From the UHGV virus genome UHGV-1374413: a stretch of 45,179 bases of DNA, one strand, 5' to 3'. The first letter of the stretch is position 1. Every line of letters begins with the position of its first letter. A program made the position numbers and the translations under genes. This DNA comes from a virus. Below are positions 1,245-17,287 of this stretch, in pieces. The notes under the pieces are model-generated. The model was not told the origin of the DNA and did not search any database. It worked only from the letters and a program-made list of their open reading frames with translations.

Positions 1245-2954
1245 TTAATACACTTTTGTAATTCTTAAACGCTCATGCCAAATATAACCATTGTTATTTT
1301 TAGAATAAACACGACACCAACCGTCCTTAATTTCAAAGACGTAAAATTGGCTATATCCTGCTTTGTAAATGTCGTTAGTAGTGTACCATTCCTTACCTCT
1401 AAATTTAACTAATGCTGCGCTATAATAATCGACACGCGCTCTAAATTTAGCTTTAGACGACTTTTTCATGTTTAATGGTGGAATACTATTCACTTTTATT
1501 CCTGTTGTATCTGCAAGAATATTACGTTGCGCTACTGCTTGTTTATCATCTTTTTTTGCAAAATTCTTACCACCTGCTGTTTTGTAGATATCTTTAACGA
1601 TTAAGCGTTCATACCATACATAACCGTCATTGCTAGGACTGTAAACTCTAGCCCAACCATTACGAATTTCATAAATGTAGAACACGTCGCCCGGATCGTA
1701 TTCTTCACTCGTAACAACCATTACGTTATTATGGTTAGGTCTACAAATTCTAACGCCCTCGCTATCTGCAACCGCTTTGAAGTATGGTTGATTACTCCAT
1801 GTTAAGTTTAGCGGTGGCTTTTTCTCTAACTTGATTGAACTTTTAGATTTACGTTGAGGTTTTTGTACTTCTTTAATATCAGTTAAATCAACGCTATCGT
1901 CTGCGAAGTCTGGCACAATGAAATGTGTTAAGCCTGTGTAATCATCTTCACGTAATTTAGCTGGCGAATTGGCTTTACTATCGAAGTTTTGTTCTAAGAT
2001 TGTAAATGATTTTGTACCGCCGCTATTGTCCCAAACTAAACCAGTATGTCCCCACTTTTTGTAAATTCCTGACGTATAAATTGGAATTGCACAAATAGGC
2101 GGCACGTAATCTCTTGTATTTTTAACCACTTTCCAACCTTTCGGCATGGCGTTTTTAGTGTGTAACTCTTTAGCGTTACCAATGAAACGTACGCCGCCTG
2201 TTACATGATAGATGAAGTCTACAACGACATCTACACATTGATAAGCCCACTCTTTATCAAAGTCGATATATTGTCCTTTCAAGCTGTGCATGTATTCGAT
2301 TGCTTGTTTATACTTAACCACACTTTGTGGCGAAGGTGTCGGCTTTTTAGTTGTTTTTGTTGATAGTTTCTTGCTCGGTGCTGGTTTAACGCCATTAATA
2401 TATTTAGCGATTTGCTTATCTAAATTCTTAACGTTTCTCGAATATCCACAAGCCTCTAATAAGTTTCCGGGATCAATCTTATCAGCTTGAATATCTTGGT
2501 GTCCCGGCACTTCGGTTTTATAATCAATTCCCCAATAGTTACATAAATACGCTAATACACGCGCCATATTATCCAATGACTTACGCGAACGTTGAATGTT
2601 ACCGGGGAAATAACTACCCTCTACACCAAACGCAACGTCGTTAGCATCAGCATTATACCACTGATTGTCAGTAGGCGTGTTATATAATACATGCCATGCT
2701 TTCTCTGTTACTGGAATACATACAATACACTCTTTATCATCAACAAATATATGAGCGCTAGCAACAATTGACCAATCAATCATATAAGTATTTTTATAAT
2801 AATTCACATTCGTTTGAGCCGATGTGTGAGGGTTTCCAGTGTCATGTGCTACTGCAAATAAAGGTTTCTTACTTGTTAAAGGTTGCCCGCTTCTACGTGT
2901 TCCAATCGGTAAAAAATCATATTTAACTGGTACGCCATTCCATTTTTCTGCCAT
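1245..2954 (-). CDS. Endolysin: N-terminal N-acetylmuramoyl-L-alanine amidase (Amidase_2/PGRP), central CHAP peptidase, two C-terminal SH3b (SH3_5) repeats
   Basis: 569 aa. Amidase_2-like N-terminus. CHAP Cys/His motifs AYQCVD ... WGHTGLVW. Two repeats (YIYEIRNGWARVYS...YVWYERL and YVFEIKDGWCRVYS...YIWHERL) typical of staphylococcal SH3b wall-binding domains. Last gene before the prophage end. Confidence 0.85.
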   Translation of the reverse strand: MAEKWNGVPVKYDFLPIGTRRSGQPLTSKKPLFAVAHDTGNPHTSAQTNVNYYKNTYMIDWSIVASAHIFVDDKECIVCIPVTEKAWHVLYNTPTDNQWYNADANDVAFGVEGSYFPGNIQRSRKSLDNMARVLAYLCNYWGIDYKTEVPGHQDIQADKIDPGNLLEACGYSRNVKNLDKQIAKYINGVKPAPSKKLSTKTTKKPTPSPQSVVKYKQAIEYMHSLKGQYIDFDKEWAYQCVDVVVDFIYHVTGGVRFIGNAKELHTKNAMPKGWKVVKNTRDYVPPICAIPIYTSGIYKKWGHTGLVWDNSGGTKSFTILEQNFDSKANSPAKLREDDYTGLTHFIVPDFADDSVDLTDIKEVQKPQRKSKSSIKLEKKPPLNLTWSNQPYFKAVADSEGVRICRPNHNNVMVVTSEEYDPGDVFYIYEIRNGWARVYSPSNDGYVWYERLIVKDIYKTAGGKNFAKKDDKQAVAQRNILADTTGIKVNSIPPLNMKKSSKAKFRARVDYYSAALVKFRGKEWYTTNDIYKAGYSQFYVFEIKDGWCRVYSKNNNGYIWHERLRITKVY

Positions 2955-3262
2955 TATGCACGACCTCCACCAATTTTATTATTTTTATCTTTAGTTGAAC
3001 CTGTACGTGGTCGAACTGTTTCCCAGATACCAGTAGCCATTAGTCCACTAATCAAACCAGCAAGCAATCGACCTCCGATTGATAATTCGGTAACAATTTC
3101 AGGAATAAAAGCTGTAATACCACCTAAAACAACACCAATACCAATAGCAATTAAAGGCACAATGTTTTTAGGTACGCCAGCTTGCTTAACTAATTGTGTT
3201 AATGCGATTGTGATAACTGAAATTACTGTTGCAAATGCAATAATACTTTCCATTTCTTCCAC
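2954..3262 (-). CDS. Holin (small protein with 3 predicted TM helices)
   Basis: 102 aa, three hydrophobic segments, charged C-terminal tail. Stop overlaps the endolysin start (ATGA). Confidence 0.75.
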   Translation of the reverse strand: MEEMESIIAFATVISVITIALTQLVKQAGVPKNIVPLIAIGIGVVLGGITAFIPEIVTELSIGGRLLAGLISGLMATGIWETVRPRTGSTKDKNNKIGGGRA

Positions 3263-3272
3263 TCCTTATTCA

Positions 3273-3303
3273 AAATAAAAAGCCGACCTAAAAAGGTCAG
3301 CTT
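3273..3303 (-). terminator. Rho-independent terminator between the tail genes and the lysis cassette
   Basis: Hairpin AGCUGACC-UUUUUA-GGUCGGCU followed by UUUUUAUUUUG on the minus strand. A weaker plus-strand reading is also possible. Confidence 0.5.
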
Positions 3304-3309
3304 GTAGTG

Positions 3310-3453
3310 TTATTCTTTAATTGTGTCTTGGTATTCTTGTCCAGTTAATTCTTTAAACTCTTCTTCTGTTACAAAACCTCGTTTTACGAATAAAGCAAAC
3401 TGTTCTTCGTTATATAAACCCATTTTATAGTATCTAATACCTATATTACGCAT
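3310..3453 (-). CDS. Small hypothetical protein (47 aa) not in the ORF track
   Basis: Hand translation MRNIGIRYYKMGLYNEEQFALFVKRGFVTEEEFKELTGQEYQDTIKE. RBS GGAGAGTGG 5 nt upstream of the ATG. Densely packed late region. Confidence 0.4.
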   Translation of the reverse strand: MRNIGIRYYKMGLYNEEQFALFVKRGFVTEEEFKELTGQEYQDTIKE

Positions 3454-3790
3454 TGTTACCACTCTCCAAAACTTGTAATGTTAAATTCGCCATATCATTC
3501 TGTAAATTTACTACTGTATTTTGCGTTTCCATTAATTGTAATGTTAAATCTGCTATTAAAACATCTTTATCATCCGGTGTTTCTTCTACTTCAATTTTAG
3601 GCTGTTGTTCCAACCATTCTTCGTACGGTGTACCCACCCATTTTTCACCATCAAAATGGATAGGTTCATAAAGTCCTTCTGGTGGTGCAATATCAGTCCA
3701 TTGCCCCTCTGGATATTCTAATTCTCCATCTTTATTCTCCATGACTAGAAATGATGTTCCATCATAAAAATAAATTTGTTTTGTTTTCAT
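3446..3790 (-). CDS. Hypothetical tail-module protein
   Basis: The ORF track gives 3446..3847. An internal start at MKTKQIYFYDG (3790) has RBS GGAGAGTGGAGGAT and avoids a 44-nt overlap with the upstream fiber gene. Confidence 0.6.
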   Translation of the reverse strand: MKTKQIYFYDGTSFLVMENKDGELEYPEGQWTDIAPPEGLYEPIHFDGEKWVGTPYEEWLEQQPKIEVEETPDDKDVLIADLTLQLMETQNTVVNLQNDMANLTLQVLESGNNA

Positions 3791-3803
3791 ATCCTCCACT
3801 CTC

Positions 3804-5150
3804 CTATAATGATATTGTTCCTTCGATATAATAAGGTTCATTAGCATCTACTGTACTATTAGGTTCAAATGTTATTTTTAGTTCTCCAGAAGTAATCATA
3901 GTTATATTATATATAGCTGATGTATTCATATATGGATTTATTTTCACTTTTGAATACTCTGCATAACTGCTTATTTTTTGTGAAATATTTGTTGGTAACT
4001 TTGCAAACTCCATTGTTCTTGAAGTAATATTCTTTACTGATCCTTTAATAAATAACAAATTAGTATCATTTATAGTAACAAGTCTATATTTTGGTTGGTT
4101 TGCGGTCCCAGCTTGTGTCGTTCCGTTAATTAATGAAAGTGGTTGCCACCCAGTGTCAATATAGTCGTTACTCAAGTTTTCCCATTCTATCCAACCAATT
4201 GATTCTGAATAAGTTTTAATATATAAATCGTTACGATTATACGAAGAATAATATATTTTCCTACCATTTCCTTCGTTCTTTTGTATAAAAACATATCCAG
4301 TAGCTCCACTAGGAGAATCTTGAGCTTTTAGGTTAAAATAAAATCCCGATTTTGCAGATAAAAGATTATCATTAGTCATTGGATTACCATCATAAAAATT
4401 AGTTATTTGATTACCACTATCATTAGTTAATTTATGTTTTTGCCAATTTGTAAAATCGGGTAAAGTAGGTGTTTCTCCTGGTGGACCTGGAGGTCCTTGT
4501 TCGCCTTGTAGACCTTTTTCTCCAGTATCGCCTTTAGGCCCCATAGGACCTGTTGGACCTGCTGGACCCATTTCACCATCTATTCCGTTTGCTCCTTGTT
4601 CGCCTTTTGGCCCTTGTGGACCAGTATCACCTTTATCGCCTTTTGGCCCTCTAAAACGTTCAATGTCTTTTAACATAATTCGTTCAACGATATCATCTAA
4701 CATATCAACATGAACTTCTTTACCGATTGCTTTTGTGATACCACTATCGTTTACTTTGAAATAGAAATCTGCCACATGTGAACTATCATCAGTCAAATTG
4801 CTACTATCAATTAAGAATAATTTTGCTTGTACACGTCCTACGTGCTTTGTTACATAGTCAGATACGTTGTAACGCACATGACCTTCTTCTGCTTTCACTA
4901 CTTCTAATTCCTCATTAGTAAAAATAGAGCCATCTTCAGCAATTAGATGCAATACTGGTTTGAATGTCGTTTGATTTAAATTTACTGGAATAAATTCTTT
5001 TTCTTCGCTAAAGATATTACGCTTTTTAATATGAATATCTAATACAGAAGTAGAGTTATCCATTGTGTAAAGATTGACATTGATATTACCTAAGTCAATA
5101 CCTCGCTCATCTATACGAGCAATTACTTTACCTTGCTTGAACGTTTCCAT
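3804..5150 (-). CDS. Tail fiber protein with a collagen-like Gly-X-Y triple-helix region
   Basis: 448 aa. About 60 residues of uninterrupted G-X-Y repeats ([59 protein letters not shown]). Position within the tail/baseplate module. Confidence 0.8.
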
Positions 5151-5202: not shown

Positions 5203-6966
5203 CTATGTTTGTTTGTATCGGTCACGTATAAAGTGTTCACCTTTTAGACCGATTTTTTCATATAAACTTTTAATTGTATTCGCTTGATGTTGCGCCCAAC
5301 GTACATCAGTAGCGTATTGGTGTGTACCAGGATGTTGAGGGTTCCAACGCATTCTATATAATGTTTGTTGTCCTTGATCGATATATCCTCTTCTAACAAA
5401 CTTAGCACCACCGATGATAGCTTTAGAAGGAGTAGTCCAACCTTGATTTCTAGCAAATGTCATAGCGTAGTTAGGGTTGCTGTCATAAGCAGCAATACCG
5501 AAGTAGTTATAAACGCCGTAACTTCCGCTAGCGAAAGCGGAACGACCATATCCACTTTCTAAGAATGCATGTGCAATTAAGTAGATTTCGTTCACGTTAT
5601 ATTTCTTACAAGCTGAAGCGAAAGCTTTACCTTGTCCGTACAGAGTACCTTTACCTTTGAGTATTTTATTTAACTTGCTTACTGATATGCCTTGATATTT
5701 ACCTAAGTTAAGCATTTGATATTTCTGAGTTGAACTGTTCCAAATCTCTAAACTGTTCATCGCTTTTAATGTAGCCGTTCGACTAGCATTGTACCAACCT
5801 GTACCGTAGTTGATTTGTGGCCATTTTGTCATTTGAATATCAACCGCTCGTTTAAATGAGTAATTACTGTAAACAACCATAACTTTAGGCTTACTAGATA
5901 CTTTTTTTCTTGACGACGATGATGAAGATGAAGATGAGTTTTCTTTCTTCTTAACTTTAATTTTAACTTTAGTTGTTTTACCATTTCTCACTTCTTTGAG
6001 TATCTTGTTTTTATCTTTGTATAACCCAAGTAGTGCTTTTTCAACCCTGTCAAGAACCTTAGAAGAAGGCTTACCGTCGATTAGAGGGTCAAAGTTACCA
6101 TGTTCCATAACGGTACGCCATAAGTCGTCAGTAACCTTCACTGATGATTGTTTAATTGGAATTTTATACCTTTGTAGTTGCCCAACGCCAAATATGATTG
6201 CGTGTAGTTCGTTAAGTAAGAAATCTGTTTTGGTATCGCTGTAATCTCCACACACTTCAATCACAATATGGTCAGGTTCACTAGGCACTTTGATATCTGT
6301 ATATCGTGGTTGCCAGATGTGATGACGGTCAATGTAGAAGTGTGGATATTCATCGTTAGAAATGTATTTGTTTCTGTCATAATACATCTGTTGTACAGAA
6401 CACATTGTTCCGGCATTCTTGACTGATATACCTTTAGGCTTACGAGTTCTTAATTCTCCATGAGCAATTCTGTGGGGGATGAATGTAGGAAAATCAACAT
6501 TCTCATCATCTTCTGCGGTTACTGTAATAATCTTTCGTTTTTTAAGTGGTTCTTTTTTAGTTTTCGGTTTCGGTCTGTCTGAAGAATCGCCTTTGTCATT
6601 AGATGGTGTTGAAGTTTTTGGTTCTTCTTTATAAGGTGGTCGAACGAAGTAGAGACTACCACCCATACCGTTATAATTATGATTAACATACGCAGCTTTG
6701 CTACCGTAATAACTGTTGGCATTGTACCAATTTTGGTCAATACATTTAAAGTTACTTTTATCGCTAGGACCAATAACTATTGCAGTATGACCTGCCGAAC
6801 CATAAGTCCAAACTGCTATATCACCCGGCTTAGGAACGAAATTAGAAGCATTTGCATATATCTTCCAATCACGGCTGGGGTACTGACTACGACGTGCCAT
6901 CGCATTCGCATTACCCCACGTTCTAAATCCCCAATATCTGTCAAAGATATAGTTAGGTAAATCCCA
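5203..6966 (-). CDS. Virion-associated peptidoglycan hydrolase, exon 2 (rest of CHAP domain + C-terminal glucosaminidase domain)
   Basis: The frame opens WDLPNYIFDRYWGF...GHTAIVIG (CHAP His region). The C-terminus has an endo-beta-N-acetylglucosaminidase-like region (YLIAHAFLESGYG...YNYFGIAAYD). Poly-Ser linker. Architecture matches phi11-type tail-associated muralytic enzymes. Confidence 0.8.
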   Translation of the reverse strand, partial: WDLPNYIFDRYWGFRTWGNANAMARRSQYPSRDWKIYANASNFVPKPGDIAVWTYGSAGHTAIVIGPSDKSNFKCIDQNWYNANSYYGSKAAYVNHNYNGMGGSLYFVRPPYKEEPKTSTPSNDKGDSSDRPKPKTKKEPLKKRKIITVTAEDDENVDFPTFIPHRIAHGELRTRKPKGISVKNAGTMCSVQQMYYDRNKYISNDEYPHFYIDRHHIWQPRYTDIKVPSEPDHIVIEVCGDYSDTKTDFLLNELHAIIFGVGQLQRYKIPIKQSSVKVTDDLWRTVMEHGNFDPLIDGKPSSKVLDRVEKALLGLYKDKNKILKEVRNGKTTKVKIKVKKKENSSSSSSSSSRKKVSSKPKVMVVYSNYSFKRAVDIQMTKWPQINYGTGWYNASRTATLKAMNSLEIWNSSTQKYQMLNLGKYQGISVSKLNKILKGKGTLYGQGKAFASACKKYNVNEIYLIAHAFLESGYGRSAFASGSYGVYNYFGIAAYDSNPNYAMTFARNQGWTTPSKAIIGGAKFVRRGYIDQGQQTLYRMRWNPQHPGTHQYATDVRWAQHQANTIKSLYEKIGLKGEHFIRDRYKQT

Positions 6967-7211
6967 CAATTTTGTTGCGATAACAGGCGCTACTTGTTAC
7001 CTTCTTCATATTTCTATGAACGTTCAGACTATATCATCAACCTATTAGGTTGCTCCCCGTTTCCACTCGCTTGAGTGTACGTCTTTCGACTAGTCGTTGC
7101 ACGTTCCTATTTCTAGGCTTCGCTCATGATTGCCCTCGTCTTATGCATTAGGGTTTCCCATGAATTAGAGGAGTTTGCTATAACGATTACTCGTTAAAGG
7201 TGCTAGATTTA
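6967..7211 (-). other. Group I self-splicing intron (245 nt, no internal ORF) interrupting the tail hydrolase gene inside the CHAP active-site motif
   Basis: Exon 1 ends ...GMYGYQC (last nt U), exon 2 begins WDLPNYIF, and the intron ends in G. The intron carries R-like (GUGCAACGACUAGUCG) and S-like (GAUAUAGUCUGAAC) elements able to form P7 (GACUA/UAGUC). Removing it restores an in-frame CHAP domain. Confidence 0.75.
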
Positions 7212-7328
7212 ACACTGATACCCATACATACCATCTATATTGACACCTAATTTGTTATCAGCTAACCATTTAGCCCATGCTACTACCTGTTTGGCTGTTG
7301 GTTTGCCTGATGAAGGTAAAATTGCCAT
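7212..7328 (-). CDS. Virion-associated peptidoglycan hydrolase, exon 1 (39 codons, N-terminus of CHAP domain)
   Basis: Hand translation MAILPSSGKPTAKQVVAWAKWLADNKLGVNIDGMYGYQC. RBS GGAAGGTGGATAA upstream of the ATG at 7328. Ends in the CHAP catalytic Cys context. Confidence 0.75.
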
Positions 7329-7380: not shown

Positions 7381-7791
7381 TTATTTGAATATCAACGGTG
7401 CAAGTTGCATGGCTGTTCCGAGTAAAGCAAATATTCCACTAATAATTGCTGTTGCTATCCCAACATTCCATTTTTGTTTATCACTTACCGTTGCATTAAT
7501 CTTGTCTAATTCATCTGAATGTTTATCTACTTGATTTTTAACTTCGTTGAAACCGTCTTTAAAACTAGTTATTTCTCCACTTATTTTTTCTAAGTGTTTT
7601 TCAGAACGTTCCTGTGATTGATAGTTTTTTTCTTGTATTGCGTTTTGAGTATCAATCTTACCGTTTAAAGCGATAATTTGCTTATCAGTCTGATTGATCC
7701 GTTCATAAATTTTACCGTTACTTCTTTCAAATTCGTGGCGTTTAACGTAATCATTTTCTTCTGACAATCTCAGCACCTCCGAAGAATGCAA
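7381..7791 (-). CDS. XhlA-like protein (coiled coil with C-terminal transmembrane anchor)
   Basis: 136 aa. Long coiled-coil region and hydrophobic C-terminus (WNVGIATAIISGIFALLGTAMQLAPLIF), as in XhlA-family haemolysin/lysis-associated proteins. Confidence 0.6.
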   Translation of the reverse strand: MHSSEVLRLSEENDYVKRHEFERSNGKIYERINQTDKQIIALNGKIDTQNAIQEKNYQSQERSEKHLEKISGEITSFKDGFNEVKNQVDKHSDELDKINATVSDKQKWNVGIATAIISGIFALLGTAMQLAPLIFK

Positions 7792-8170
7792 GTCCCACGT
7801 TTATCATGGTTATCGTGGCGAACTGCAAAGGTGATAACCAGTTAATCGCATTGTAGACACTTGCTGATGTCATAAAAAAATAGAAGATTGCATTTCCGCA
7901 ACCTCCTATTAATATGAGATAGTCAAAGATATGGTTTAATTTTTGTTTTGGTAAAAAAAACGGTGCGATAATGATAAAAATACTACAAATCATTCCTAAA
8001 ACGCCCCATACCCAAATTGGCATGATGTGATGAAGCGCTAAGTAGAAATCACTATCATCAAGAATATCATTTTGTTCTTTCGTCCAAAAGAAACCACGTT
8101 CAAACTCTAATAAACCTATTCCACTAAGCAAAACAACAACTAGTGAATAAAGTATCGTGTTCTTTTTCAA
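7751..8170 (-). CDS. Membrane protein (4 predicted TM helices), function unknown
   Basis: 139 aa with four hydrophobic segments. Overlaps the XhlA-like gene. Confidence 0.6.
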   Translation of the reverse strand: MKKNTILYSLVVVLLSGIGLLEFERGFFWTKEQNDILDDSDFYLALHHIMPIWVWGVLGMICSIFIIIAPFFLPKQKLNHIFDYLILIGGCGNAIFYFFMTSASVYNAINWLSPLQFATITMINVGLAFFGGAEIVRRK

Positions 8171-8190: not shown

Positions 8191-9387
8191 TTAAGTTTCA
8201 GTAACATCTGCAATCATTTCACCTACGTTTATATTATTTGTTGCATCGTACCAACTTCCCCAACCCGTTGTACTTCCCATCATATTACGTGAGTAAATTC
8301 TGTGTCTGTTGAACGGTAAGAACAATACTTTCTTATAGCTAGAACTTCTTGACATAACGAATAAGTAACCACTTTGATTATCAGGCTCAGGTGAGTTAAC
8401 TGGATTATACGCGTAATAGAATCCTGAAGATTCGATGCCACTCATAGTGTGTAAGTCAGGACTATCGATTCTTGGAATATAACCGTCATTATCAGTGAAT
8501 GCGAAACGTTGTAATGAAGCGTTAGCTACTGCTTCGTCGACTTTTTCTTTAATGATTGCATCTAAACCTGGTATCTCAGTAGGTTCGGACGGAGTAACGT
8601 CTCCGACATTAGCTTTACCGTCTAATTGTTCAGTTAGTTCTTCGTTAGTTGGATAGTTTGCAAGTAACGTATTTAATTCATCTTCAGTAACAAAATTTTC
8701 TGTACCGTTTTCCAATTCGCTAAGCGTTTGCAGCATTTTGTCGTCAATTGAGTTGAGTCGATCTATAAGGTCTTTTTGCGTATTGTTTGCAAATGCATTC
8801 ATATCATTCTTCATATCATTAACTTGTTTAATGAAAGCATTTTTTTGTGCATTTACAAACGCAGTGAAATCAGCTTGTGCTGTTTCGATATCGCTAAAAT
8901 TTTGTGAAACACTTTCGATTTTTTCTTTGAAGTTATCAATTAAATCGTCAATTTCACGAATATAACTAATTTTGATATCTGCATCAATTTGATTAATTAA
9001 CGCATCTTTGACATAGAAACGGAATTCATTTAATACAACTGTATCTTTACGACCAACAGCTTTGATGTAGATTTGACCTGTGACATAAGTGTCTGTTGCA
9101 GCTTTTAAGAAGTCGTTATCTAAAGTGAGTTGAATGATACCTTGCATTGGATTAACGTAATCAACTTGAACACGTCCAGTTGACGATCCGTTATCAGATA
9201 CAAAGTAAGCATAAATATCGGTATTTACTTTACTGATTTCTAATGGATAATCTTGTTTTCTTACTTGAAACGTTAAAACTGCTGTATTGATATCCATGTT
9301 ATAAAAACCGATATTCTCGTCAGTAATAGGCTTCAAACGTGGCTCATCAACAACTGTGATTTTCGCTTCTTTTTTTAAACCATCCAT
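8191..9387 (-). CDS. Baseplate upper protein / tail fiber (BppU-like)
   Basis: 398 aa. Coiled-coil middle region and conserved C-terminal beta-rich region. Position between the peptidase-containing baseplate protein and the lysis-like genes. Confidence 0.6.
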   Translation of the reverse strand: MDGLKKEAKITVVDEPRLKPITDENIGFYNMDINTAVLTFQVRKQDYPLEISKVNTDIYAYFVSDNGSSTGRVQVDYVNPMQGIIQLTLDNDFLKAATDTYVTGQIYIKAVGRKDTVVLNEFRFYVKDALINQIDADIKISYIREIDDLIDNFKEKIESVSQNFSDIETAQADFTAFVNAQKNAFIKQVNDMKNDMNAFANNTQKDLIDRLNSIDDKMLQTLSELENGTENFVTEDELNTLLANYPTNEELTEQLDGKANVGDVTPSEPTEIPGLDAIIKEKVDEAVANASLQRFAFTDNDGYIPRIDSPDLHTMSGIESSGFYYAYNPVNSPEPDNQSGYLFVMSRSSSYKKVLFLPFNRHRIYSRNMMGSTTGWGSWYDATNNINVGEMIADVTET

Positions 9388-9399
9388 TTAAAAACCTCC

Positions 9400-11274
9400 T
9401 TATTTTTTAGTAATAATCTTATTACGAACATCAAATGGTGCTGGTTTATTTGGATAAATTTGTTTAAATGTTTGCTCTTTTTGGTTGCCATATCCTGTTG
9501 AAGTAAACATTTGAACAGCATTATGAGAATGACTAGGTGTGAATTTAACATTAAGTACCATATTCAATACTTTTGCATATCCTTCTTTTCTCATTACGTC
9601 TACCACTGCCATAACTTCGTTTGTACGTTTAACATTATCTGGTGTTGTTGTAGAAAATTGAACAGGTGCCACTGCATGTAACGGAATAGTATGAATGCCA
9701 GCCGGTAATTTGTGTTCAATTTTAAATAATTGACGTCTTCTTGTTTTGCCATTACCACTAAATGGATTGTAGTTTTGTGCAATTCCCGGATTAACCCCGA
9801 ATACTGTATCTTTAGATAACTGAACTGTGATTGATCCATTTAATTCAACAAAACCATTGGCAGTGACTTTAAACCGTTGTTGTGTCATCAACATACGTTG
9901 ATATCCATCTTTGGCGATAAGTGAGAATGGTTTAACGCCAGAATTGTTATAACGACTACTATATACAAACGATTTAACAATAGGTTCGTTTGCTGTTCTT
10001 CCGTTTTGACCATTATATAAGCTCGACAATCTTAAAAGAATATTTCCTAAGTAATATACACTACGCCACATTTCTTCCGCGCCTCTAGGTTTACCAGCAC
10101 GACCTTCATATACTTCAGGTAAGAATGATGTAATGCCTTTCGTGATACCAACCCAATTTGAAAATGACGCTAATGTACTTGAACCCCAAGTAACATAATC
10201 ACCATAATTCGATAATTCCATTAAAAGTTGTGTCATTTCGTTATTAGGTTGATTTGCAAATCTAGGATAGAATAAGCAATAATCACTAACTTGAGATACG
10301 ATGTTGTGGCAATCCATATGTGCTGTAATTTCGTCTAAACTTTCAACGAGTGTTTTCATATTTCTGCTTTCTCGTTCACTAAATACTTTAGAGCCTTTAT
10401 AGTTCTTACCACTCGGACTTTTACCACTACCATTTTCCCAGTAGTAATCAAAGTTACGGTTTAAATCGACATTATTTACATTTTCACGTTCTTGATTAGC
10501 AAATCCCCATGGATTTACGATAGGAACCATGACAATACGCACATTTTTACGTAAATAAGCGAGTTGAGGGTATTTTTCCCACTCATTTACAACTAAGTTC
10601 ATGAAACGGCTCATAGCATAAAATGCGCTATATTCGTTACCGTGAATACAACAAGTGACTAATACTGTTTTACTGTAATGTTCCGGCTCAAATGTATAAC
10701 TATATACGTTGTATTTGTTTGATTGGTCTTTACCAATGTACTTTTTGAAACAATATTTATTATCGACAAACACGTCATAGAACGCTTTTAAGTTTTCAGT
10801 TGGATCATTACTTAATGGCGTTTCGTTTACACCACGTTCAGCACTTTTCATGTAAGGTGGATTAAATAAATATGCAGGGTCGTCAGTAACGTTCAACAAC
10901 TTATCTGTTTCTTCTTCAATGCGTGAAAAATCGTGTTTTAGACGTTCAGACAATAATGGGTGACTTTGACCATCCATAGAAACACGACTGTCACGCACCT
11001 CTTGTTGTCCATTTCCTAAATTGCCTAATACTAAATTTCTAATACGTTCATTTTGATAATGAAGTTCTTTACCAACCGTAATACTAGGACCCGTAGGAAG
11101 TGTATGTTTAATTTGTTCAGATGTGTGTGCTTTCTTCTCTCTTCGACCATGTCTGTCTAATATCATTTCGATATTTGTTAACATATCTCTTGTGGCAATA
11201 AAATTTAACTCATTTTCTCTAACAAAACGAGCGCCAAAGATTGTATCTAAATCGGTATATATCGTTTTTCTCAT
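9400..11274 (-). CDS. Baseplate/minor structural protein containing a zinc carboxypeptidase (M14-like) domain
   Basis: 624 aa. Motifs CIHGNEYSAFYA (HxxE zinc ligands), VNPWGF and NRNFDYYW match M14/succinylglutamate-desuccinylase-type carboxypeptidases. Lies directly after the Tal-like gene in the tail tip module. Confidence 0.65.
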   Translation of the reverse strand: MRKTIYTDLDTIFGARFVRENELNFIATRDMLTNIEMILDRHGRREKKAHTSEQIKHTLPTGPSITVGKELHYQNERIRNLVLGNLGNGQQEVRDSRVSMDGQSHPLLSERLKHDFSRIEEETDKLLNVTDDPAYLFNPPYMKSAERGVNETPLSNDPTENLKAFYDVFVDNKYCFKKYIGKDQSNKYNVYSYTFEPEHYSKTVLVTCCIHGNEYSAFYAMSRFMNLVVNEWEKYPQLAYLRKNVRIVMVPIVNPWGFANQERENVNNVDLNRNFDYYWENGSGKSPSGKNYKGSKVFSERESRNMKTLVESLDEITAHMDCHNIVSQVSDYCLFYPRFANQPNNEMTQLLMELSNYGDYVTWGSSTLASFSNWVGITKGITSFLPEVYEGRAGKPRGAEEMWRSVYYLGNILLRLSSLYNGQNGRTANEPIVKSFVYSSRYNNSGVKPFSLIAKDGYQRMLMTQQRFKVTANGFVELNGSITVQLSKDTVFGVNPGIAQNYNPFSGNGKTRRRQLFKIEHKLPAGIHTIPLHAVAPVQFSTTTPDNVKRTNEVMAVVDVMRKEGYAKVLNMVLNVKFTPSHSHNAVQMFTSTGYGNQKEQTFKQIYPNKPAPFDVRNKIITKK

Positions 11275-11284
11275 GTCAGACCTC

Positions 11285-12532
11285 CTACTTTAGTTTTAAA
11301 TTACCATTGGAATCTACAACGAATTCAGCATTACTCAAATCAACAGCTGTACCGTCTTCTTTAGTAATCCTCATACCTCTACCTTCGCCTTCTTGTTGGC
11401 GTTGTGTAGTTCTAATAGCTGCGTTTGTCTTGGCAGTTGTTACTTTATATGTGTTGACGAAACTACTTCGTCCTCCTAATCCACCAACTGCCGCCGCTGC
11501 TTCACTTACACGCTTTTTATATCTATCCACACGTTTGAAATCTCCTAGAGTAACGTCTTGTTTGACAATAACATTGTCTTTATCCCTTACTGTTTTTACA
11601 TCAACGATACGAACAAATTCATTAATACCTAATATGGAGTGGTTAATCTTAACGATATCAGCTACTTTAGGAACAGCGTTTGGATAGTGTCTATTCAGAG
11701 CAATGAAATCTAAACTAATTGATGTTTTAACTGAACTTTCGATTAATGATTGAAGTTTTTGGTGCATCACTTCTTCATCTTTGATACGACCATCCTTAAT
11801 TGGTGGCGCATCATAACGACCATAGTCTTTCATATCAGGGTGCTCAAATTTCATAATGAGTCCAGCCCCTTTAATACCATCATCATCATCATAATCACCG
11901 TAACCAACAGCGTATGTGTATAACTCACTACTATCTTCTTCAACCTTCATATTATTAGCATTGATTTCGTCGTCTATGTGATAAGTAGCATCTTTACTCA
12001 AAAAAGGTGTGAATACGAATGTGTAAGTCTTTTTCTTGCTATCGAACTCAATGTCGAATTCTACATCGAAGTGACTACAAAATTTCTTAATCAAATCTTC
12101 TAAACTTTCACCTTCGCCAGCATCTTCAAATCGAGATGAACCAAGGGAACCGTTTATTCTATACTTCAATTTAGTACCGCTGAAAATACGTCTAAGGAAG
12201 TTGTCAGCTGTAAAACTACCGTCTATCGTATCGTAAACACGAGTGTGTTTAATGATGTCTAATGGTTTATAACGACAAGAAACAGACACACGTTGTTTCT
12301 TACCATGTGTCTGTCTGTCGATAATAAATACTACATATTCTCTTTTATCCTTTGGGCCTTGTACTCTTGAAATCGTCCATCTTTTTTGTAAACCTCTGAC
12401 AATTTGATAATTAAACTCATCTTCAACAATTTCGAATTGTAATATTATGTCAGAACCAAGTTTAGATGTTTCGGTAGTAGACACGTACAACGGAATACTA
12501 CGCCCACGTATTGGAGTAACTAATATTGACAT
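11285..12532 (-). CDS. Tail-associated lysin/tail tip protein (Tal-like, N-terminal gp27-like portion)
   Basis: 415 aa. Position immediately after Dit. Acidic DYDDDDG loop. Typical Tal N-terminal domain organisation. Confidence 0.6.
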   Translation of the reverse strand: MSILVTPIRGRSIPLYVSTTETSKLGSDIILQFEIVEDEFNYQIVRGLQKRWTISRVQGPKDKREYVVFIIDRQTHGKKQRVSVSCRYKPLDIIKHTRVYDTIDGSFTADNFLRRIFSGTKLKYRINGSLGSSRFEDAGEGESLEDLIKKFCSHFDVEFDIEFDSKKKTYTFVFTPFLSKDATYHIDDEINANNMKVEEDSSELYTYAVGYGDYDDDDGIKGAGLIMKFEHPDMKDYGRYDAPPIKDGRIKDEEVMHQKLQSLIESSVKTSISLDFIALNRHYPNAVPKVADIVKINHSILGINEFVRIVDVKTVRDKDNVIVKQDVTLGDFKRVDRYKKRVSEAAAAVGGLGGRSSFVNTYKVTTAKTNAAIRTTQRQQEGEGRGMRITKEDGTAVDLSNAEFVVDSNGNLKLK

Positions 12533-12541
12533 GTCTACACC

Positions 12542-13498
12542 TCACAAGTAATAAAATTTCAAGTCAAATGTCACTGATTTAACTTGCTGATTAAATTCAA
12601 AGTTATTCCAACCGGGATAAAACTTTGGTTGTGCGTTTGACGCTAGATCATTAATAGGAATACCGTTTCTAAACGTCTGTACACCATCATAGACAATCTT
12701 GTCGCCTTTTTTTAAGTTAGCCCCTTCAATTGTCATAACATCACTGCTACCTAGCGTAAATTGGAATATCTCTGATGCTTTAACACTTTTTCCTAATACA
12801 ATTGTTACTTTTTTGAATAAGTTGAATTGGTCATTAGGTACATTCCCGTGATAGTACACTGAACTGTTATATACATTAGTGAATGTATATTTACGACGCA
12901 TATTTTCTTCGTCAAAAGGAATTAACATATCATTCGACCACAATTCTCTATCAGGTCGTTTCTCTAATGCCAATGACGTTCCAATACTTTCGGCAAATGG
13001 AAGTTCTACTGTTTCAAATTTAATTGAGAAGTTAATTTTACGCCCGTTCTCTTCGGGTACGATTACATCCGAACACATAACTTGATATTGTTTACCATTC
13101 ACATAATGATTATTGTTAAATGGCTCATGATTAAACACTAAATTGTTGTATTCGTCTATCTCTTGATAGTCGCGTTCAGTAGGTTGTATGAAACGATAGT
13201 TAAGTGGAACTGTCCGTCTTAACTCTCTAATATAAATAGGTTCATTACTATTAGTTAGCGAGTAAAACTCATCTCGTAAACGTGAATTATCGTTTAGTTT
13301 AGTAGAAACTACATAACAATCAACTGTGATATTTCGTTTACGATACTGACTACTTAGAAGAATACGACCACTTGTATTTTCTTTTTTCTCATAATCTGTT
13401 TCTTTTTCAATACTTTCAACGGTAACATTCGTCACTTTGAAACCGAAGTCGCCCAAAGTATAACGTTGTCCGTTTCTTTTCTTAATTTCTATATCCAT
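12542..13498 (-). CDS. Distal tail protein (Dit)
   Basis: 318 aa, immediately downstream of the tape measure gene, as in siphovirus tail modules. Confidence 0.7.
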   Translation of the reverse strand: MDIEIKKRNGQRYTLGDFGFKVTNVTVESIEKETDYEKKENTSGRILLSSQYRKRNITVDCYVVSTKLNDNSRLRDEFYSLTNSNEPIYIRELRRTVPLNYRFIQPTERDYQEIDEYNNLVFNHEPFNNNHYVNGKQYQVMCSDVIVPEENGRKINFSIKFETVELPFAESIGTSLALEKRPDRELWSNDMLIPFDEENMRRKYTFTNVYNSSVYYHGNVPNDQFNLFKKVTIVLGKSVKASEIFQFTLGSSDVMTIEGANLKKGDKIVYDGVQTFRNGIPINDLASNAQPKFYPGWNNFEFNQQVKSVTFDLKFYYL

Positions 13499-13510
13499 TG
13501 AACGACCTCC

Positions 13511-16500
13511 TTAGAATGAAAATACCGTATCATCATTTGCAGTTTGACCATTCACAATCGTTGCTAATGCTTCGTTGTTAACGTCCATTTCAATACGAAC
13601 AACACGTTGTGAAGGGTTTGTTTGAATAGTATGTGTATGTTGGACTTGAGCGTTCATATTAGCGTTTACTTTCTTCATGTTGGCAGTTATGTCTGGAATG
13701 GCTAAATTACTATTAAACGCGTCTGTAATACTATTAGCCATGCTACCCATACCACCGATAACATTTTTACCTTCTTTATTAATTCCGATGCCTAAACCTT
13801 CCATAGTCCATACACCGTATTGTTTAAATAATTTAGAAGGTGAACCAATGTGTAAAGCGCTTTTAGCAGCATTCACTGCACCCATTACTACATTTTTTGC
13901 AACAGATGCAACTTGTCCTGCCATTGCTTTAATACCGTTAATAAGTCCCATGATTAAATCACGACCAACAGAAACCATATGACCGATAAAACTACGTGCA
14001 GCACTTACTGCATTTGATACACCTGACGTTACTGAACTAACCACATTAGACATTCCTGAAATGACAGAATTTACAATTCCGGACATCGCCGAGCCAACTG
14101 CGCTAAGCATGTTAGAAAAACCACTCGATACAAAGCTAACTGCTCTTGATACCGCGTTAGTAATAAAACTAACGATTGATGACCAAATGCTTGAAATCAA
14201 GCTAGAAATGGCACTCATGATTGATGAAGTGACACTCATTAGCGACGACCAACCACTTGATACGAACGAAATGATGCTTGATACAATCGAAGTGATAATA
14301 TTAACAATAGCTGACCAAATAGCGCTTATGAATGCAGAAATTGCAGACATGATTGCGCTTGTTACTGATAAAAGTAAACTCCAACCAGCTTGAACGAAAC
14401 TTACTATACTTTGAACCACTGTTGTAATCACAGTAACTAACGTAGTCCAAATTGTTTGAGCAACTGTAACAAGCAACGTCCAGAAAGTTTGAGCTACTGT
14501 AACAATGGTTTGCCATATAGTTGATAAGAACACACCTAATGTTTGGACTACCGTAACGATTGTAGTAACAATCATTTGCCAAATTGTGGAAGCCACTGTG
14601 ACTAAAGTCGTCCAAATCGTTTGAGCGGTAGTGACAATAGAAGTCCATAAATTCATTAGGAATACACCTAATTGAACGACCACTGTTAATACTGCGCTAA
14701 CGATTGCTTGCCAAATTTGACTAGCCAAACTGATTAATGGTTCAAATATTTGAGAAAAGCCATTCACAATATTTTGCCATGTTTGTTGTAAATAATCTCC
14801 TAGGATTTGCCAAATATTTTTAGCCATATCTACAATGGCTTGCCAAATATCTGCGCCGACTTTTGATATAGTTTCCCATGCACCAGACCAATCACCAGAT
14901 AAGATTTGAAGTAACGCAGTAATTGTGCCAAGAATAACTTCCATTGCTATTTTAACTACCGCTTTAATTATTTCCCATGCCACTTTAATGACGCTAACTA
15001 TCGTATTAAACGCTTGAGATACGATAGGTGTTAGTAATTTAACTGCTGTTTCAACAACTTTTACTATAATATCCCATGTGTTTTTAAATAAAGGAACTAA
15101 TGGCGCTAAGATTGATTGCGCTTCATTCCATAAGTCTTGTAAGAAACCGATAACCGCATGAATAGCATCTCCAACTGCACTAGAAATCGCATTCCATGCG
15201 TCTGTAACTGCATTTCGCAATACAGAAGAAGATTTCCACAATGCAACAAATACAGCGATTACTGCTACTACTGCTGCTATTACTATGCCTACCGGACCAG
15301 ATAACGCTGCAAGTACGCCACCTAAAAATTCTATAGCGCCCATGACAACGCTAATTATTCCACTTAAACCACCGAATGTAGTAATAAGAGGGATAATTAC
15401 TTGAGTTACAAAAATGAACGCTGGTGCTAATGCCATTAATATTCCAGCTAACGTTGCTACGATTCCTACAATCATACCAATAATCGGACTAGCTTCTGTT
15501 AGTTTCCCTATAAACTTGGTAATAGCTAACGCTACATCTAAAACTACTGATGCTAATGGAGCCATAGCTACACCGACATTAATAAGAATATTGATGATAT
15601 TACCTAATAATTGGATAAGTTTAGGTCCGTTCTCTTGAACGTATTCAATGAACTTTTTAAATCCGTCACTCTCTGCAATCGTTGCACTCCATTGTTCAAA
15701 TTGCTTAGCCATATCTGCTAAACCTTGTAATACTAAATGAGTGTTAGGAGCAAATGCTTTCATTAAGTTGAATATACCTCTAAATGTTGAACCGAATATC
15801 TGACCTATCAATGGCAAATTCTGTTTAGTATATTCAATGAATGACTTAATCGCATTTTGTCCTTCAACTGACTGCGCCCACTCATTAAATGCTTGTCCCA
15901 TTTTCTTAAAGCCTTGCGATACCCATTCGGCTAATGGAGCAATTTGTGTAAGTACACTAACTAAACCACTACCAAATGAGCCGGCAGCATCTAACATATT
16001 GTTAAATATTCTTACGCCAGTTGTACCCATCATCTCGAAGAACTTCTGTGCTACTTGTGAGTTTTTAGCCCAATTAAGCATTTTAGCACTTGCTTGTTCC
16101 ATTCCTTTAGATACACCGTTGATAAATGGTGTAAGTCCAGCTAACGCAACTTTAGCAGTATCAATCGCATTTGCTAATGTATTAAAGATTTGTGCTTGAT
16201 TTTGTTTAATAAGGTCTGCCCATGCACCTTTTAAACTTTCTAATGAAGCCTCGTAACGTTCAGTTTCTCTAGTTGCTTCTAATGTACCGTCTGATAACAT
16301 TTTTAAAGCACTGATGCCCATAGCACCAAATGCTACTGCACCTGCGCCAGCTACACCAAATGCACCAGCTACACCTAGCGCACCACCGGCAACTACGCCT
16401 AATGCATTCAATACCGCCATTAGTGCCGGTACTACACTTGCGATTGCTGGAACGAGTAACGAAATGTTAGAAAGTAACGAACCTTTAATCATGTTCCCAA

Positions 16501-17287
16501 ACACTGTTCCAAATGATCTAATATCATTTGCTAAGCTATCTAATGAATTACTGTAATCTTCTAAACCTTTGTGTAGTTGTTTAAAGAAAGCCATTGCTGA
16601 ATTTCCATCTACATCAAGCCGAGTACGATGTCGGTTAGGGATAGAACGTAGCATAGCTTTAAACGCTTTTATGTGAGCAATAGCACCTGCGCTATCAACT
16701 TCAAGATTAGCTTTAGCTTTTTGATGAGCGAAGTCATTTAGCTGTTTCTTAGCCATTTTAATATGTTCTCTTGCTCTAGTTGCATCTGCATCTAATGTTG
16801 CTGAATACTTGCTACCGTCGATACTATCTAGGTTATGTTGCAATTCAGAAATATGCGTAATAGCTTTTCTAATGTTTACATCAGCGTCTGCTTCTGCATT
16901 TGAATTATCATACATATCTAAATAATTCTGTATTTTCTTAATATTTGCAGTAGCTTTAGATACATCGGCATCTAACTCTGCATCACCACGATAAGCATCG
17001 AATTTTTCAACCAACGACTTAGCCTGTGCGACTTTTTCTCTAACATCAGAAATATCTGCGTCAAGTTCTGCATCTGCATGAGTATTATCAAAGCCTTTTA
17101 CGGCATCTCTTGCTGCTTTGACTGCTTTCATTACGCCTGATGAGTCGCCATCTAATTTAGTATCTTTGATTGATTCCTGTGTTTTCTTAAAGTTTTGAGC
17201 CACTTTCTTAGCTGATTGGATAGCACTTTTAAATTTACGTGTGTTCGCCTCAATCTGCGCTTTAATACTATAATTTGCTTCTGCCAC
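13511..17287 (-). CDS. Tail tape measure protein
   Basis: 1258 aa, largest gene. Coiled-coil N-terminus, hydrophobic Gly/Ala-rich central region, and tandem ~11-aa repeats (TIWTTLVTVAQ, QTFWTLLVTVA). Positioned after the G/GT chaperones. Confidence 0.9.
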   Translation of the reverse strand: MAEANYSIKAQIEANTRKFKSAIQSAKKVAQNFKKTQESIKDTKLDGDSSGVMKAVKAARDAVKGFDNTHADAELDADISDVREKVAQAKSLVEKFDAYRGDAELDADVSKATANIKKIQNYLDMYDNSNAEADADVNIRKAITHISELQHNLDSIDGSKYSATLDADATRAREHIKMAKKQLNDFAHQKAKANLEVDSAGAIAHIKAFKAMLRSIPNRHRTRLDVDGNSAMAFFKQLHKGLEDYSNSLDSLANDIRSFGTVFGNMIKGSLLSNISLLVPAIASVVPALMAVLNALGVVAGGALGVAGAFGVAGAGAVAFGAMGISALKMLSDGTLEATRETERYEASLESLKGAWADLIKQNQAQIFNTLANAIDTAKVALAGLTPFINGVSKGMEQASAKMLNWAKNSQVAQKFFEMMGTTGVRIFNNMLDAAGSFGSGLVSVLTQIAPLAEWVSQGFKKMGQAFNEWAQSVEGQNAIKSFIEYTKQNLPLIGQIFGSTFRGIFNLMKAFAPNTHLVLQGLADMAKQFEQWSATIAESDGFKKFIEYVQENGPKLIQLLGNIINILINVGVAMAPLASVVLDVALAITKFIGKLTEASPIIGMIVGIVATLAGILMALAPAFIFVTQVIIPLITTFGGLSGIISVVMGAIEFLGGVLAALSGPVGIVIAAVVAVIAVFVALWKSSSVLRNAVTDAWNAISSAVGDAIHAVIGFLQDLWNEAQSILAPLVPLFKNTWDIIVKVVETAVKLLTPIVSQAFNTIVSVIKVAWEIIKAVVKIAMEVILGTITALLQILSGDWSGAWETISKVGADIWQAIVDMAKNIWQILGDYLQQTWQNIVNGFSQIFEPLISLASQIWQAIVSAVLTVVVQLGVFLMNLWTSIVTTAQTIWTTLVTVASTIWQMIVTTIVTVVQTLGVFLSTIWQTIVTVAQTFWTLLVTVAQTIWTTLVTVITTVVQSIVSFVQAGWSLLLSVTSAIMSAISAFISAIWSAIVNIITSIVSSIISFVSSGWSSLMSVTSSIMSAISSLISSIWSSIVSFITNAVSRAVSFVSSGFSNMLSAVGSAMSGIVNSVISGMSNVVSSVTSGVSNAVSAARSFIGHMVSVGRDLIMGLINGIKAMAGQVASVAKNVVMGAVNAAKSALHIGSPSKLFKQYGVWTMEGLGIGINKEGKNVIGGMGSMANSITDAFNSNLAIPDITANMKKVNANMNAQVQHTHTIQTNPSQRVVRIEMDVNNEALATIVNGQTANDDTVFSF

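Follow-up and report, generated by a model that had tools for sequence, protein, structure and literature searches.

What is a carboxypeptidase doing in the baseplate of a staphylococcal siphovirus, and is it a working enzyme? The question is raised by a gene (9400..11274) of the viral genome UHGV-1374413, a stretch of 45,179 nucleotides that we refer to as the window; this gene and all other features of the tail module given below lie on the minus strand. Its 624-aa product had been described, on the basis of the sequence alone, as a tail-tip protein that follows Tal and combines the catalytic motifs of M14 zinc carboxypeptidases with a C-terminal region of the receptor-binding type (hereafter, the original prediction). 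Our analysis, which relies on sequence comparison and structure prediction, suggests, with a probability that we put at about 0.65, that this protein is a catalytically competent enzymatic receptor-binding protein (RBP). The window is a StB12/StB27-like temperate siphovirus (about 89% nucleotide identity to StB12, in matches that cover 64% of the first 25 kb used as the query), i.e. a siphovirus prophage of coagulase-negative staphylococci of the Staphylococcus hominis type.

The three motifs that had been reported, HGNE (residues 211-214; 10633..10644), NPWG (residues 254-257; 10504..10515) and NRNF (residues 272-275; 10450..10461), are all present, and their spacing is M14-like: the third histidine ligand, H323 (10306..10308), lies downstream of the HxxE pair (H211/E214) within the approximately 110-125 residues typical of this family. 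When the protein was searched against Pfam, Peptidase_M14 (PF00246) matched residues 199-346 with 70.9 bits (E = 1.8e-19; gathering score 21.6), and the DUF2817 and AstE_AspA_cat models also scored above threshold. Comparison of a profile of 86 homologues with PDB recovered carboxypeptidase A (CPA), CPB, CPO, MpaA, CPM, CPD and CPT, with a best E-value of 4.6e-15. The AlphaFold2 model obtained from the 86-homologue alignment has a mean predicted local distance difference test (pLDDT) score of 87.7, with values above 90 through the M14 domain, and a Foldseek search with this model returned the M14 fold (E ~1e-15, target TM ~0.70), the closest folds being those of CPB, CPA and CPT, i.e. the M14A/CPT enzymes. 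Thus, profile searches and structure prediction agree with the original prediction that this is a genuine M14 domain: according to the model, the carboxypeptidase alpha/beta fold is present in residues 140-428 (9991..10857).

In a profile-sequence alignment (hhalign) to bovine CPA, for which we used a sequence that is not a database record and whose numbering agreed at 19 landmark positions, H211 and E214 correspond to the zinc ligands H69 and E72, and H323 to the third ligand H196 ('HMDCHN' vs 'FISIHS'). In the same alignment, R263 (10486..10488) corresponds to R127, which polarises the scissile carbonyl, and N272 and R273 correspond to N144 and R145, which bind the free carboxylate of the substrate ('VDLNRNF' vs 'VDPNRNW'), whereas the NPWG motif, a conserved M14 loop, aligns to CPA 'TNPDGF'. 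Among the 86 homologues, with identity to the query down to 23%, H211, G212, E214, P251, N254, R263, N265, R273, N274, G294, E302, D321, H323 and E387 are invariant (86/86), and N272, W256 and G257 are kept in 80, 79 and 84, respectively. The global alignment to CPA is unreliable past CPA residue 207 (near-zero confidence), and E270, W257 and I255 of CPA were mapped via secondary structure and spacing only. E387 (10114..10116) is the probable general base, the equivalent of CPA E270, because the spacing of 13 between W374 and E387 is the same as that between W257 and E270 of CPA and because E387 ends strand 382-389 of the model; the equivalence is drawn from these two features, not from superposition. 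Judging from the alignment to the CPA ligands and the close superposition of the folds, H211, E214 and H323 are expected to cluster in space. The invariance of the metal ligands together with R263 and E387 is suggestive of selection for catalysis, not for the fold alone, and hence of an active enzyme rather than a fossil fold, whereas conservation of the N272/R273 pair implies a substrate with a free carboxylate beside the scissile amide.

The domains that flank the peptidase indicate what it is mounted on. In a phmmer search against PDB, residues 4-132 matched the stems of 80alpha gp61 (6v8i; E = 2e-20) and phi11 Gp45 (5efv; E = 4.8e-20), so that the N-terminal region (residues 1-139; 10858..11274), homologous to these stems, would form a trimeric coiled coil serving as the baseplate anchor. 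This region contains a His42-X7-His50 motif, LDRHGRREKKAHTSEQ (11125..11151), along with E46 and Q54. In Gp45, an Fe3+ ion lies on the three-fold axis, coordinated by His42 and His50 of the three chains, and Glu46 and Gln54 belong to its second shell (PMC4901313); all four residues have identical numbers in the window protein, and H42, H50 and Q54 are invariant across 21 staphylococcal homologues. Gp45 consists of a stem (1-141), a five-bladed propeller platform (142-439) that is thought to bind N-acetylglucosamine (GlcNAc) of wall teichoic acid, and a tower (440-636) (PMC4901313). The domain borders of our model, 139/140 and 428/429, coincide with the 141/142 and 439/440 borders of Gp45, such that the M14 domain occupies the platform position and residues 429-624 (9403..9990) the tower position.

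The C-terminal domain is modelled as a TNF/C1q-like jelly roll, in line with the receptor-binding type that had been proposed for this region. Its structural relatives, with their scores, are chlamydial Pgp3 (10.3), BclA (8.9), cyanophage tail-fibre domains (8.4-8.5), PRD1 P5 (8.1) and the RBP heads of lactococcal phages 1358 and Tuc2009 (7.5-7.6); all of these are trimeric and many bind carbohydrates. The domain therefore has, in the model, the fold of lectins and phage RBP heads, and is probably a trimeric, lectin-type head. Neither the five-bladed propeller platform nor the double-domain tower of Gp45 was found in the window protein. Given the stem homology and the head-type relatives, the protein appears to be a Gp45-type RBP scaffold in which a peptidase stands in for the propeller and a lectin-type head takes the place of the tower. 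A further PDB entry, 9m7x_A ('Gp17', 626 aa), has the stem region in common with the window protein (E = 1.3e-07, residues 24-131) but not the M14 domain, and is presumably another member of the Gp45-type scaffold group with a different payload.

The genomic position of the gene fits this scaffold. The order of genes, namely, tape measure protein (13511..17287), Dit (12542..13498; Pfam Sipho_tail, PHROG 33 'distal tail protein Dit'), Tal (11285..12532), and the M14 gene, is the one seen for Gp45-type RBP genes, which lie directly downstream of Dit and Tal and the products of which form six trimers around the baseplate. Tal, the tail-associated lysin scaffold, is present in a short form (Pfam TT1_Tal, E = 3.5e-35; Prophage_tail, E = 1.7e-18) immediately upstream of the M14 gene. 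Both gene order and stem homology support a baseplate protein following Tal, the predicted position of which is that of a peripheral RBP, not a tail-tip lysin. In the mechanism that we propose, the stem would plug into the Dit/Tal hub as a trimeric coiled coil of the phi11 Gp45 type, the trimeric TNF/C1q-like head would dock on a wall glycopolymer, and the three M14 domains, each complete, predicted to be active and located exactly at the site of the GlcNAc-binding propeller of Gp45, would then, as the phage adsorbs, hydrolyse an amide beside a free carboxylate in a peptide polymer of the cell surface. Such an enzymatic RBP would be analogous to tailspike depolymerases; where an RBP carries an enzyme, this is typically one that depolymerises a surface polymer.

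The M14 annotation itself is already known, and the novelty implied by the original prediction does not stand. The homologue in StB12 and StB27 has been labelled 'Zn carboxypeptidase; tail protein; PF00246' by the depositors in GenBank since 2012, residues 3-624 of the window protein align to the entire 622-position profile of PHROG 4722 ('zinc carboxypeptidase'; positions 1-622), NCBI uses the name 'M14 family metallopeptidase' for prophage copies in S. epidermidis, S. caprae and S. auricularis, and a 'Zn2+ carboxypeptidase' has been noted in the tail module of S. lugdunensis prophages (PMC5425232). What is new here is the stem, M14 and jelly-roll anatomy as a domain-for-domain replacement relative to phi11 Gp45. 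According to a review, carboxypeptidases are rarely produced by phages (PMC6116005); the M14 protein is not discussed in the paper on the S-CoN_Ph phages (PMC11001980), and the searchable literature yielded no functional study of a phage M14 tail protein and no substrate for any M14 virion protein.

When residues 136-624 were compared with 50,697 phage records using tblastn, matches were found in only 38. Eighteen of these are coagulase-negative staphylococcal siphophages (StB12, StB27, StB20, StB20-like, IME1323_01, IME1318_01 and S-CoN_Ph18-25) and 13 are B. megaterium phages (Page-like podophages and the myophage Moonbeam), plus phage f2b1; the rest are partial M14 matches in phages of C. 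perfringens, Halomonas, Stenotrophomonas and Acinetobacter. Among these records, the M14-plus-head module is found only in the coagulase-negative staphylococcal and B. megaterium phages and in f2b1. Among the matches listed, S. aureus siphophages appeared with the stem only in the full-length search and were absent from the module-only search. The M14 and C-terminal domains travel together as a unit across the homologues, and the N-terminus is variable: staphylococcal homologues have a Gp45-like stem, those of Bacillus and relatives BppU_N or other adaptors. The neighbours of the homologous genes fit a tail role: in Page, a pectin-lyase tailspike gene lies on one side and structural/fibre genes on the other, in phi24R it adjoins a pre-neck appendage gene, and in a B. 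cereus prophage a BppU_N-M14 protein is encoded by the sole gene between Tal and the integrase and lysis genes.

An SPbeta-like prophage of Priestia megaterium (GCA_947495485.1) encodes a run of tail proteins with differing predicted enzyme domains, namely, Prophage_tail with GDSL lipase, GDPD phosphodiesterase, Peptidase_S74, the M14 homologue (799 aa), GDSL with Laminin_G, and a cellulase-family protein, which looks like an enzyme battery against wall polymers. Several database entries have unexpected hosts. In the actinomycete assemblies 'Nocardioides sp. NPDC127503' and 'Micromonospora sp. NPDC050417', contigs of 41,200 bp, the size of a phage genome, carry a gene for an M14 protein with 50% identity to that of the window; coverage (residues 42-620) and identity equal those of the StB20-like S-CoN_Ph phages. 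An entry labelled 'Mycobacteroides abscessus' reaches 72% identity. The most likely source of these sequences is contamination of the assemblies with staphylococcal phage or from skin. A scan of genome contigs with the patterns VDLNRN and HGNE lacked specificity, with 76 of its 80 loci being M14 genes of no relation, from Actinomycetota and similar groups, and was unusable for host distribution. The label 'putative major teichoic acid biosynthesis protein C' carried by the homologues in IME1323_01 (KY653117.1) and IME1318_01 (KY653116.1) was dropped as a lead to function because RBPs of S. aureus phages (such as SAP33) that have only the stem in common with the window protein bear it as well, so that it is uninformative on M14; apparently, a misannotation that belongs to the stem region has been propagated.

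The original prediction proposed that the enzyme trims D-Ala/Lys of peptidoglycan stem peptides or else modifies the teichoic acid environment; no direct evidence was found for either activity. In favour of a peptidoglycan substrate, the C-terminal residue of the stem peptides fits the free carboxylate implied by N272/R273, peptidoglycan is common to all hosts, and those bacterial wall-directed M14 enzymes that are known act on stem peptides. The protein would then remove terminal D-Ala or cut iGln-Lys in uncross-linked stems during adsorption, either loosening the wall locally or using the stem termini as its binding site. We consider such an activity, the main alternative to the substrate favoured below, rather unlikely in either form. 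The equivalog model of the MpaA family (M14C gamma-D-Glu-diamino-acid peptidases, MpaA/ENP1) scored 19 bits against a cut-off of 157, i.e. the protein does not belong to this family, and its closest folds, as noted above, are CPB, CPA and CPT; loss of terminal D-Ala leaves the peptidoglycan mesh closed; the virion already has CHAP and glucosaminidase domains; and the position of the protein is that of a peripheral RBP. Moreover, S. aureus has these stem termini as well, but its siphophages among the matches listed lack the module, and it is not infected by StB20-like phages (PMC11001980); stem termini would thus leave the restriction of the module to phages of coagulase-negative species unexplained. 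The host distribution and the co-occurrence with PghP described below speak for poly-gamma-glutamate no less strongly than for this reading.

The coincidence of the M14 domain with the ligand-binding propeller position of phi11 Gp45 could also mean that the domain was co-opted as a receptor pocket which, with or without zinc, binds a carboxylate ligand without turnover, host recognition being the sole function; the B. cereus prophage homologue, as the only post-Tal tail protein there, must act as an RBP. However, E387, R263 and the three zinc ligands are invariant in all 86 homologues, whereas pseudo-enzymes normally lose such residues, which makes binding without catalysis improbable. A comparably low probability attaches to a different carboxylate-bearing or ester-linked envelope target, such as teichuronopeptide-like polymers, amino-acid-substituted glycopolymers or the D-alanyl esters of teichoic acids. 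Esterase activity is also found among M14 enzymes, the wider M14/AstE-AspA clan is rich in N-acyl-amino-acid deacylases, and the P. megaterium homologue, standing among GDPD, GDSL-esterase and S74 tail proteins, suggests membership in a set of wall-polymer enzymes; nevertheless, no specific evidence was found for such a target, the closest relatives are true alpha-peptide carboxypeptidases, and teichoic acids offer no carboxylate for the conserved N272/R273 site, which is designed for one.

For an enzymatic RBP that cleaves a surface peptide polymer, our tentative choice of substrate is the poly-gamma-glutamate (PGA) layer that the hosts are presumed to make. PGA fits the M14 site because each gamma-linked Glu exposes the free alpha-carboxylate needed by a site of the N144/R145 type, and the site could engage internal or terminal residues of the polymer. 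Among M14 relatives, MpaA and the cytosolic carboxypeptidases are active on gamma-glutamyl or polyglutamate bonds, and B. megaterium is a PGA maker. In secondary citations, the PGA synthesis genes capBCAD are attributed to several coagulase-negative species, among them the S. epidermidis group (PMC6225691, PMC4585213, PMC12724294), such that the host distribution of the module matches PGA producers. In addition, StB12 encodes a PghP-type PGA hydrolase (JN700520.2, 41088..41708; PF05908, 195.5 bits, E = 8e-58) between fibre genes and the holin gene. PghP homologues were detected by tblastn in 227 phage records (150 Bacillus and 75 Staphylococcus); within the best 60 of these 227, the staphylococcal siphophages are all M14-RBP phages (14 records: StB12, StB20, StB20-like and S-CoN_Ph18-25), and the other staphylococcal matches listed are myophages of approximately 128-154 kb, most with coagulase-negative hosts. 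Thus, 14 of the 18 staphylococcal M14-RBP records also encode PghP, from which we conclude that PGA matters to these phages; this co-occurrence supports an ecological link to PGA. It is possible, albeit doubtful, that the platform-position M14 domain is a virion-borne gamma-glutamyl peptidase and that the PGA layer is the primary receptor or barrier for phages of the StB12/StB20 type and those of B. megaterium. In that case, the baseplate M14 domains would chew or grip PGA, the TNF-like head would then reach the wall glycopolymer, and the soluble PghP encoded in the same genomes would clear PGA for the progeny.

A number of observations weigh against this scheme. With regard to the enzymatic RBP in general, no biochemical or genetic data for any member of the family were found in the searched literature, an equivalent of CPA Y248 is not identifiable (S365 or W363 by spacing), and the specificity position at the bottom of the pocket, CPA 255, which by spacing only corresponds to Ser or Thr in most members, is not basic, unlike in Glu-specific M14 enzymes. 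With regard to PGA, production of this polymer by S. hominis itself is a presumption, the presence of a dedicated PghP in most of the M14-RBP phages argues that a second PGA hydrolase would be redundant, and the association with PghP comes from two phage lineages, StB12 and StB20-like. PghP was not found in the window, where the cassette in place of StB12 PghP (1245..3847) encodes a hypothetical protein, a Hol118-type holin and an Amidase_2 plus SH3b_T endolysin, and none is annotated in the RefSeq record of Page (annotation only, sequence not searched). The M14 pocket shows no conserved basic residue in the 86-homologue alignment. Finally, phages of C. perfringens and of Gram-negative bacteria, hosts that are not known to make PGA, also have M14 tail proteins, if distant ones. 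The window protein had no match to PF05908 at E <= 1 with the library that gave 195.5 bits for StB12 PghP; this result concerns family membership only, not the capacity of an M14 enzyme to cut gamma-glutamyl bonds.

Downstream of the M14 gene, the tail module continues with a BppU_N baseplate/fibre protein (8191..9387; Pfam BppU_N, E = 2.5e-13; PHROG 257), which follows immediately, two small open reading frames (ORFs; 7381..8170), a tail hydrolase (5203..7328) and a BppU_N/collagen fibre (3804..5150). The two small ORFs encode a hydrophobic protein of 139 aa and a coiled-coil protein of 136 aa with a hydrophobic C-terminal segment; they have no Pfam match at E <= 0.01 except for a weak one to FapA, and the counterpart position in StB12 is annotated 'holin (PF05105)'. 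The separate virion hydrolase that had been postulated is indeed present, as a CHAP plus glucosaminidase protein (Pfam CHAP and Glucosaminidase; PHROG 759), the gene for which is split by a group I intron (RF00028; Rfam, 104.3 bits, E = 4e-28, 7004..7221, minus strand). The intron (~7211..6967) is inserted directly after the codon for the catalytic Cys of CHAP: exon 1 (7328..7212) ends with ...GMYGYQC, the intron opens with an in-frame TAA, and exon 2 (6966..5203) begins with WDLPNYIF. Splicing would yield a hydrolase of 38 + 587 = 625 aa, the length of PHROG 759, and the downstream ORF (5203..6969) matched positions 38-625 of this profile; judging by the sequence, the unspliced product has a CHAP domain without its nucleophile. 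In StB12 (JN700520.2, 36946..39436), the tail hydrolase is annotated as three 'peptidoglycan hydrolase' coding sequences of 120, 240 and 1521 nt, with gaps of approximately 240 and 370 nt, which suggests two unannotated introns, compared to one in the window.

The M14 protein occupies the host-recognition position in phages of S. hominis, S. epidermidis, S. capitis, S. haemolyticus and S. caprae, skin staphylococci that are important opportunists and whose phages have poorly defined receptors. If active, it would define an enzymatic RBP for siphophages of Gram-positive bacteria. If, in addition, the substrate is PGA, it would be an anti-capsule enzyme ready for use against a polymer by which S. 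epidermidis evades immunity, the first virion-associated depolymerase of a polypeptide capsule and the first demonstrated case of an M14 enzyme acting on PGA. The modularity of stem adaptor, enzyme and head could be useful for RBP engineering.

Comparison with known systems places the window protein at different distances from several relatives. The counterparts in the S. hominis phages StB27 and StB12 (JN700519/JN700520), with 97% amino acid and 95% nucleotide identity, equal length and the same position after Tal, show no substantive difference; StB12 adds the downstream PghP that the window lacks. In the B. megaterium phages Page, Pony, Palmer, Pavlov, Pookie, poppyseed and Moonbeam, the M14-plus-C-terminal module is retained at 28-31% identity over 85-96% of residues 136-624 and is encoded among tailspike and fibre genes, whereas the N-terminal adaptors and virion morphologies differ. 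PghP/PghL (PF05908; PDB 3a9l) are likewise phage zinc hydrolases with a carboxypeptidase-A-like metal site (PMC6506827) and co-occur with the M14 protein in StB12, StB20 and S-CoN_Ph18-25. With Gp45 and gp61, the window protein shares the homologous stem with its His42/His50 iron motif, the three-part layout with near-identical borders and the baseplate gene position. It differs from them in having an M14 peptidase in place of the propeller and one TNF/C1q-like jelly roll where they have the double beta-sheet tower; and whereas the ligand of Gp45 is GlcNAc on the ribitol-phosphate teichoic acid of S. aureus, phages of the window type have coagulase-negative staphylococci as their hosts.

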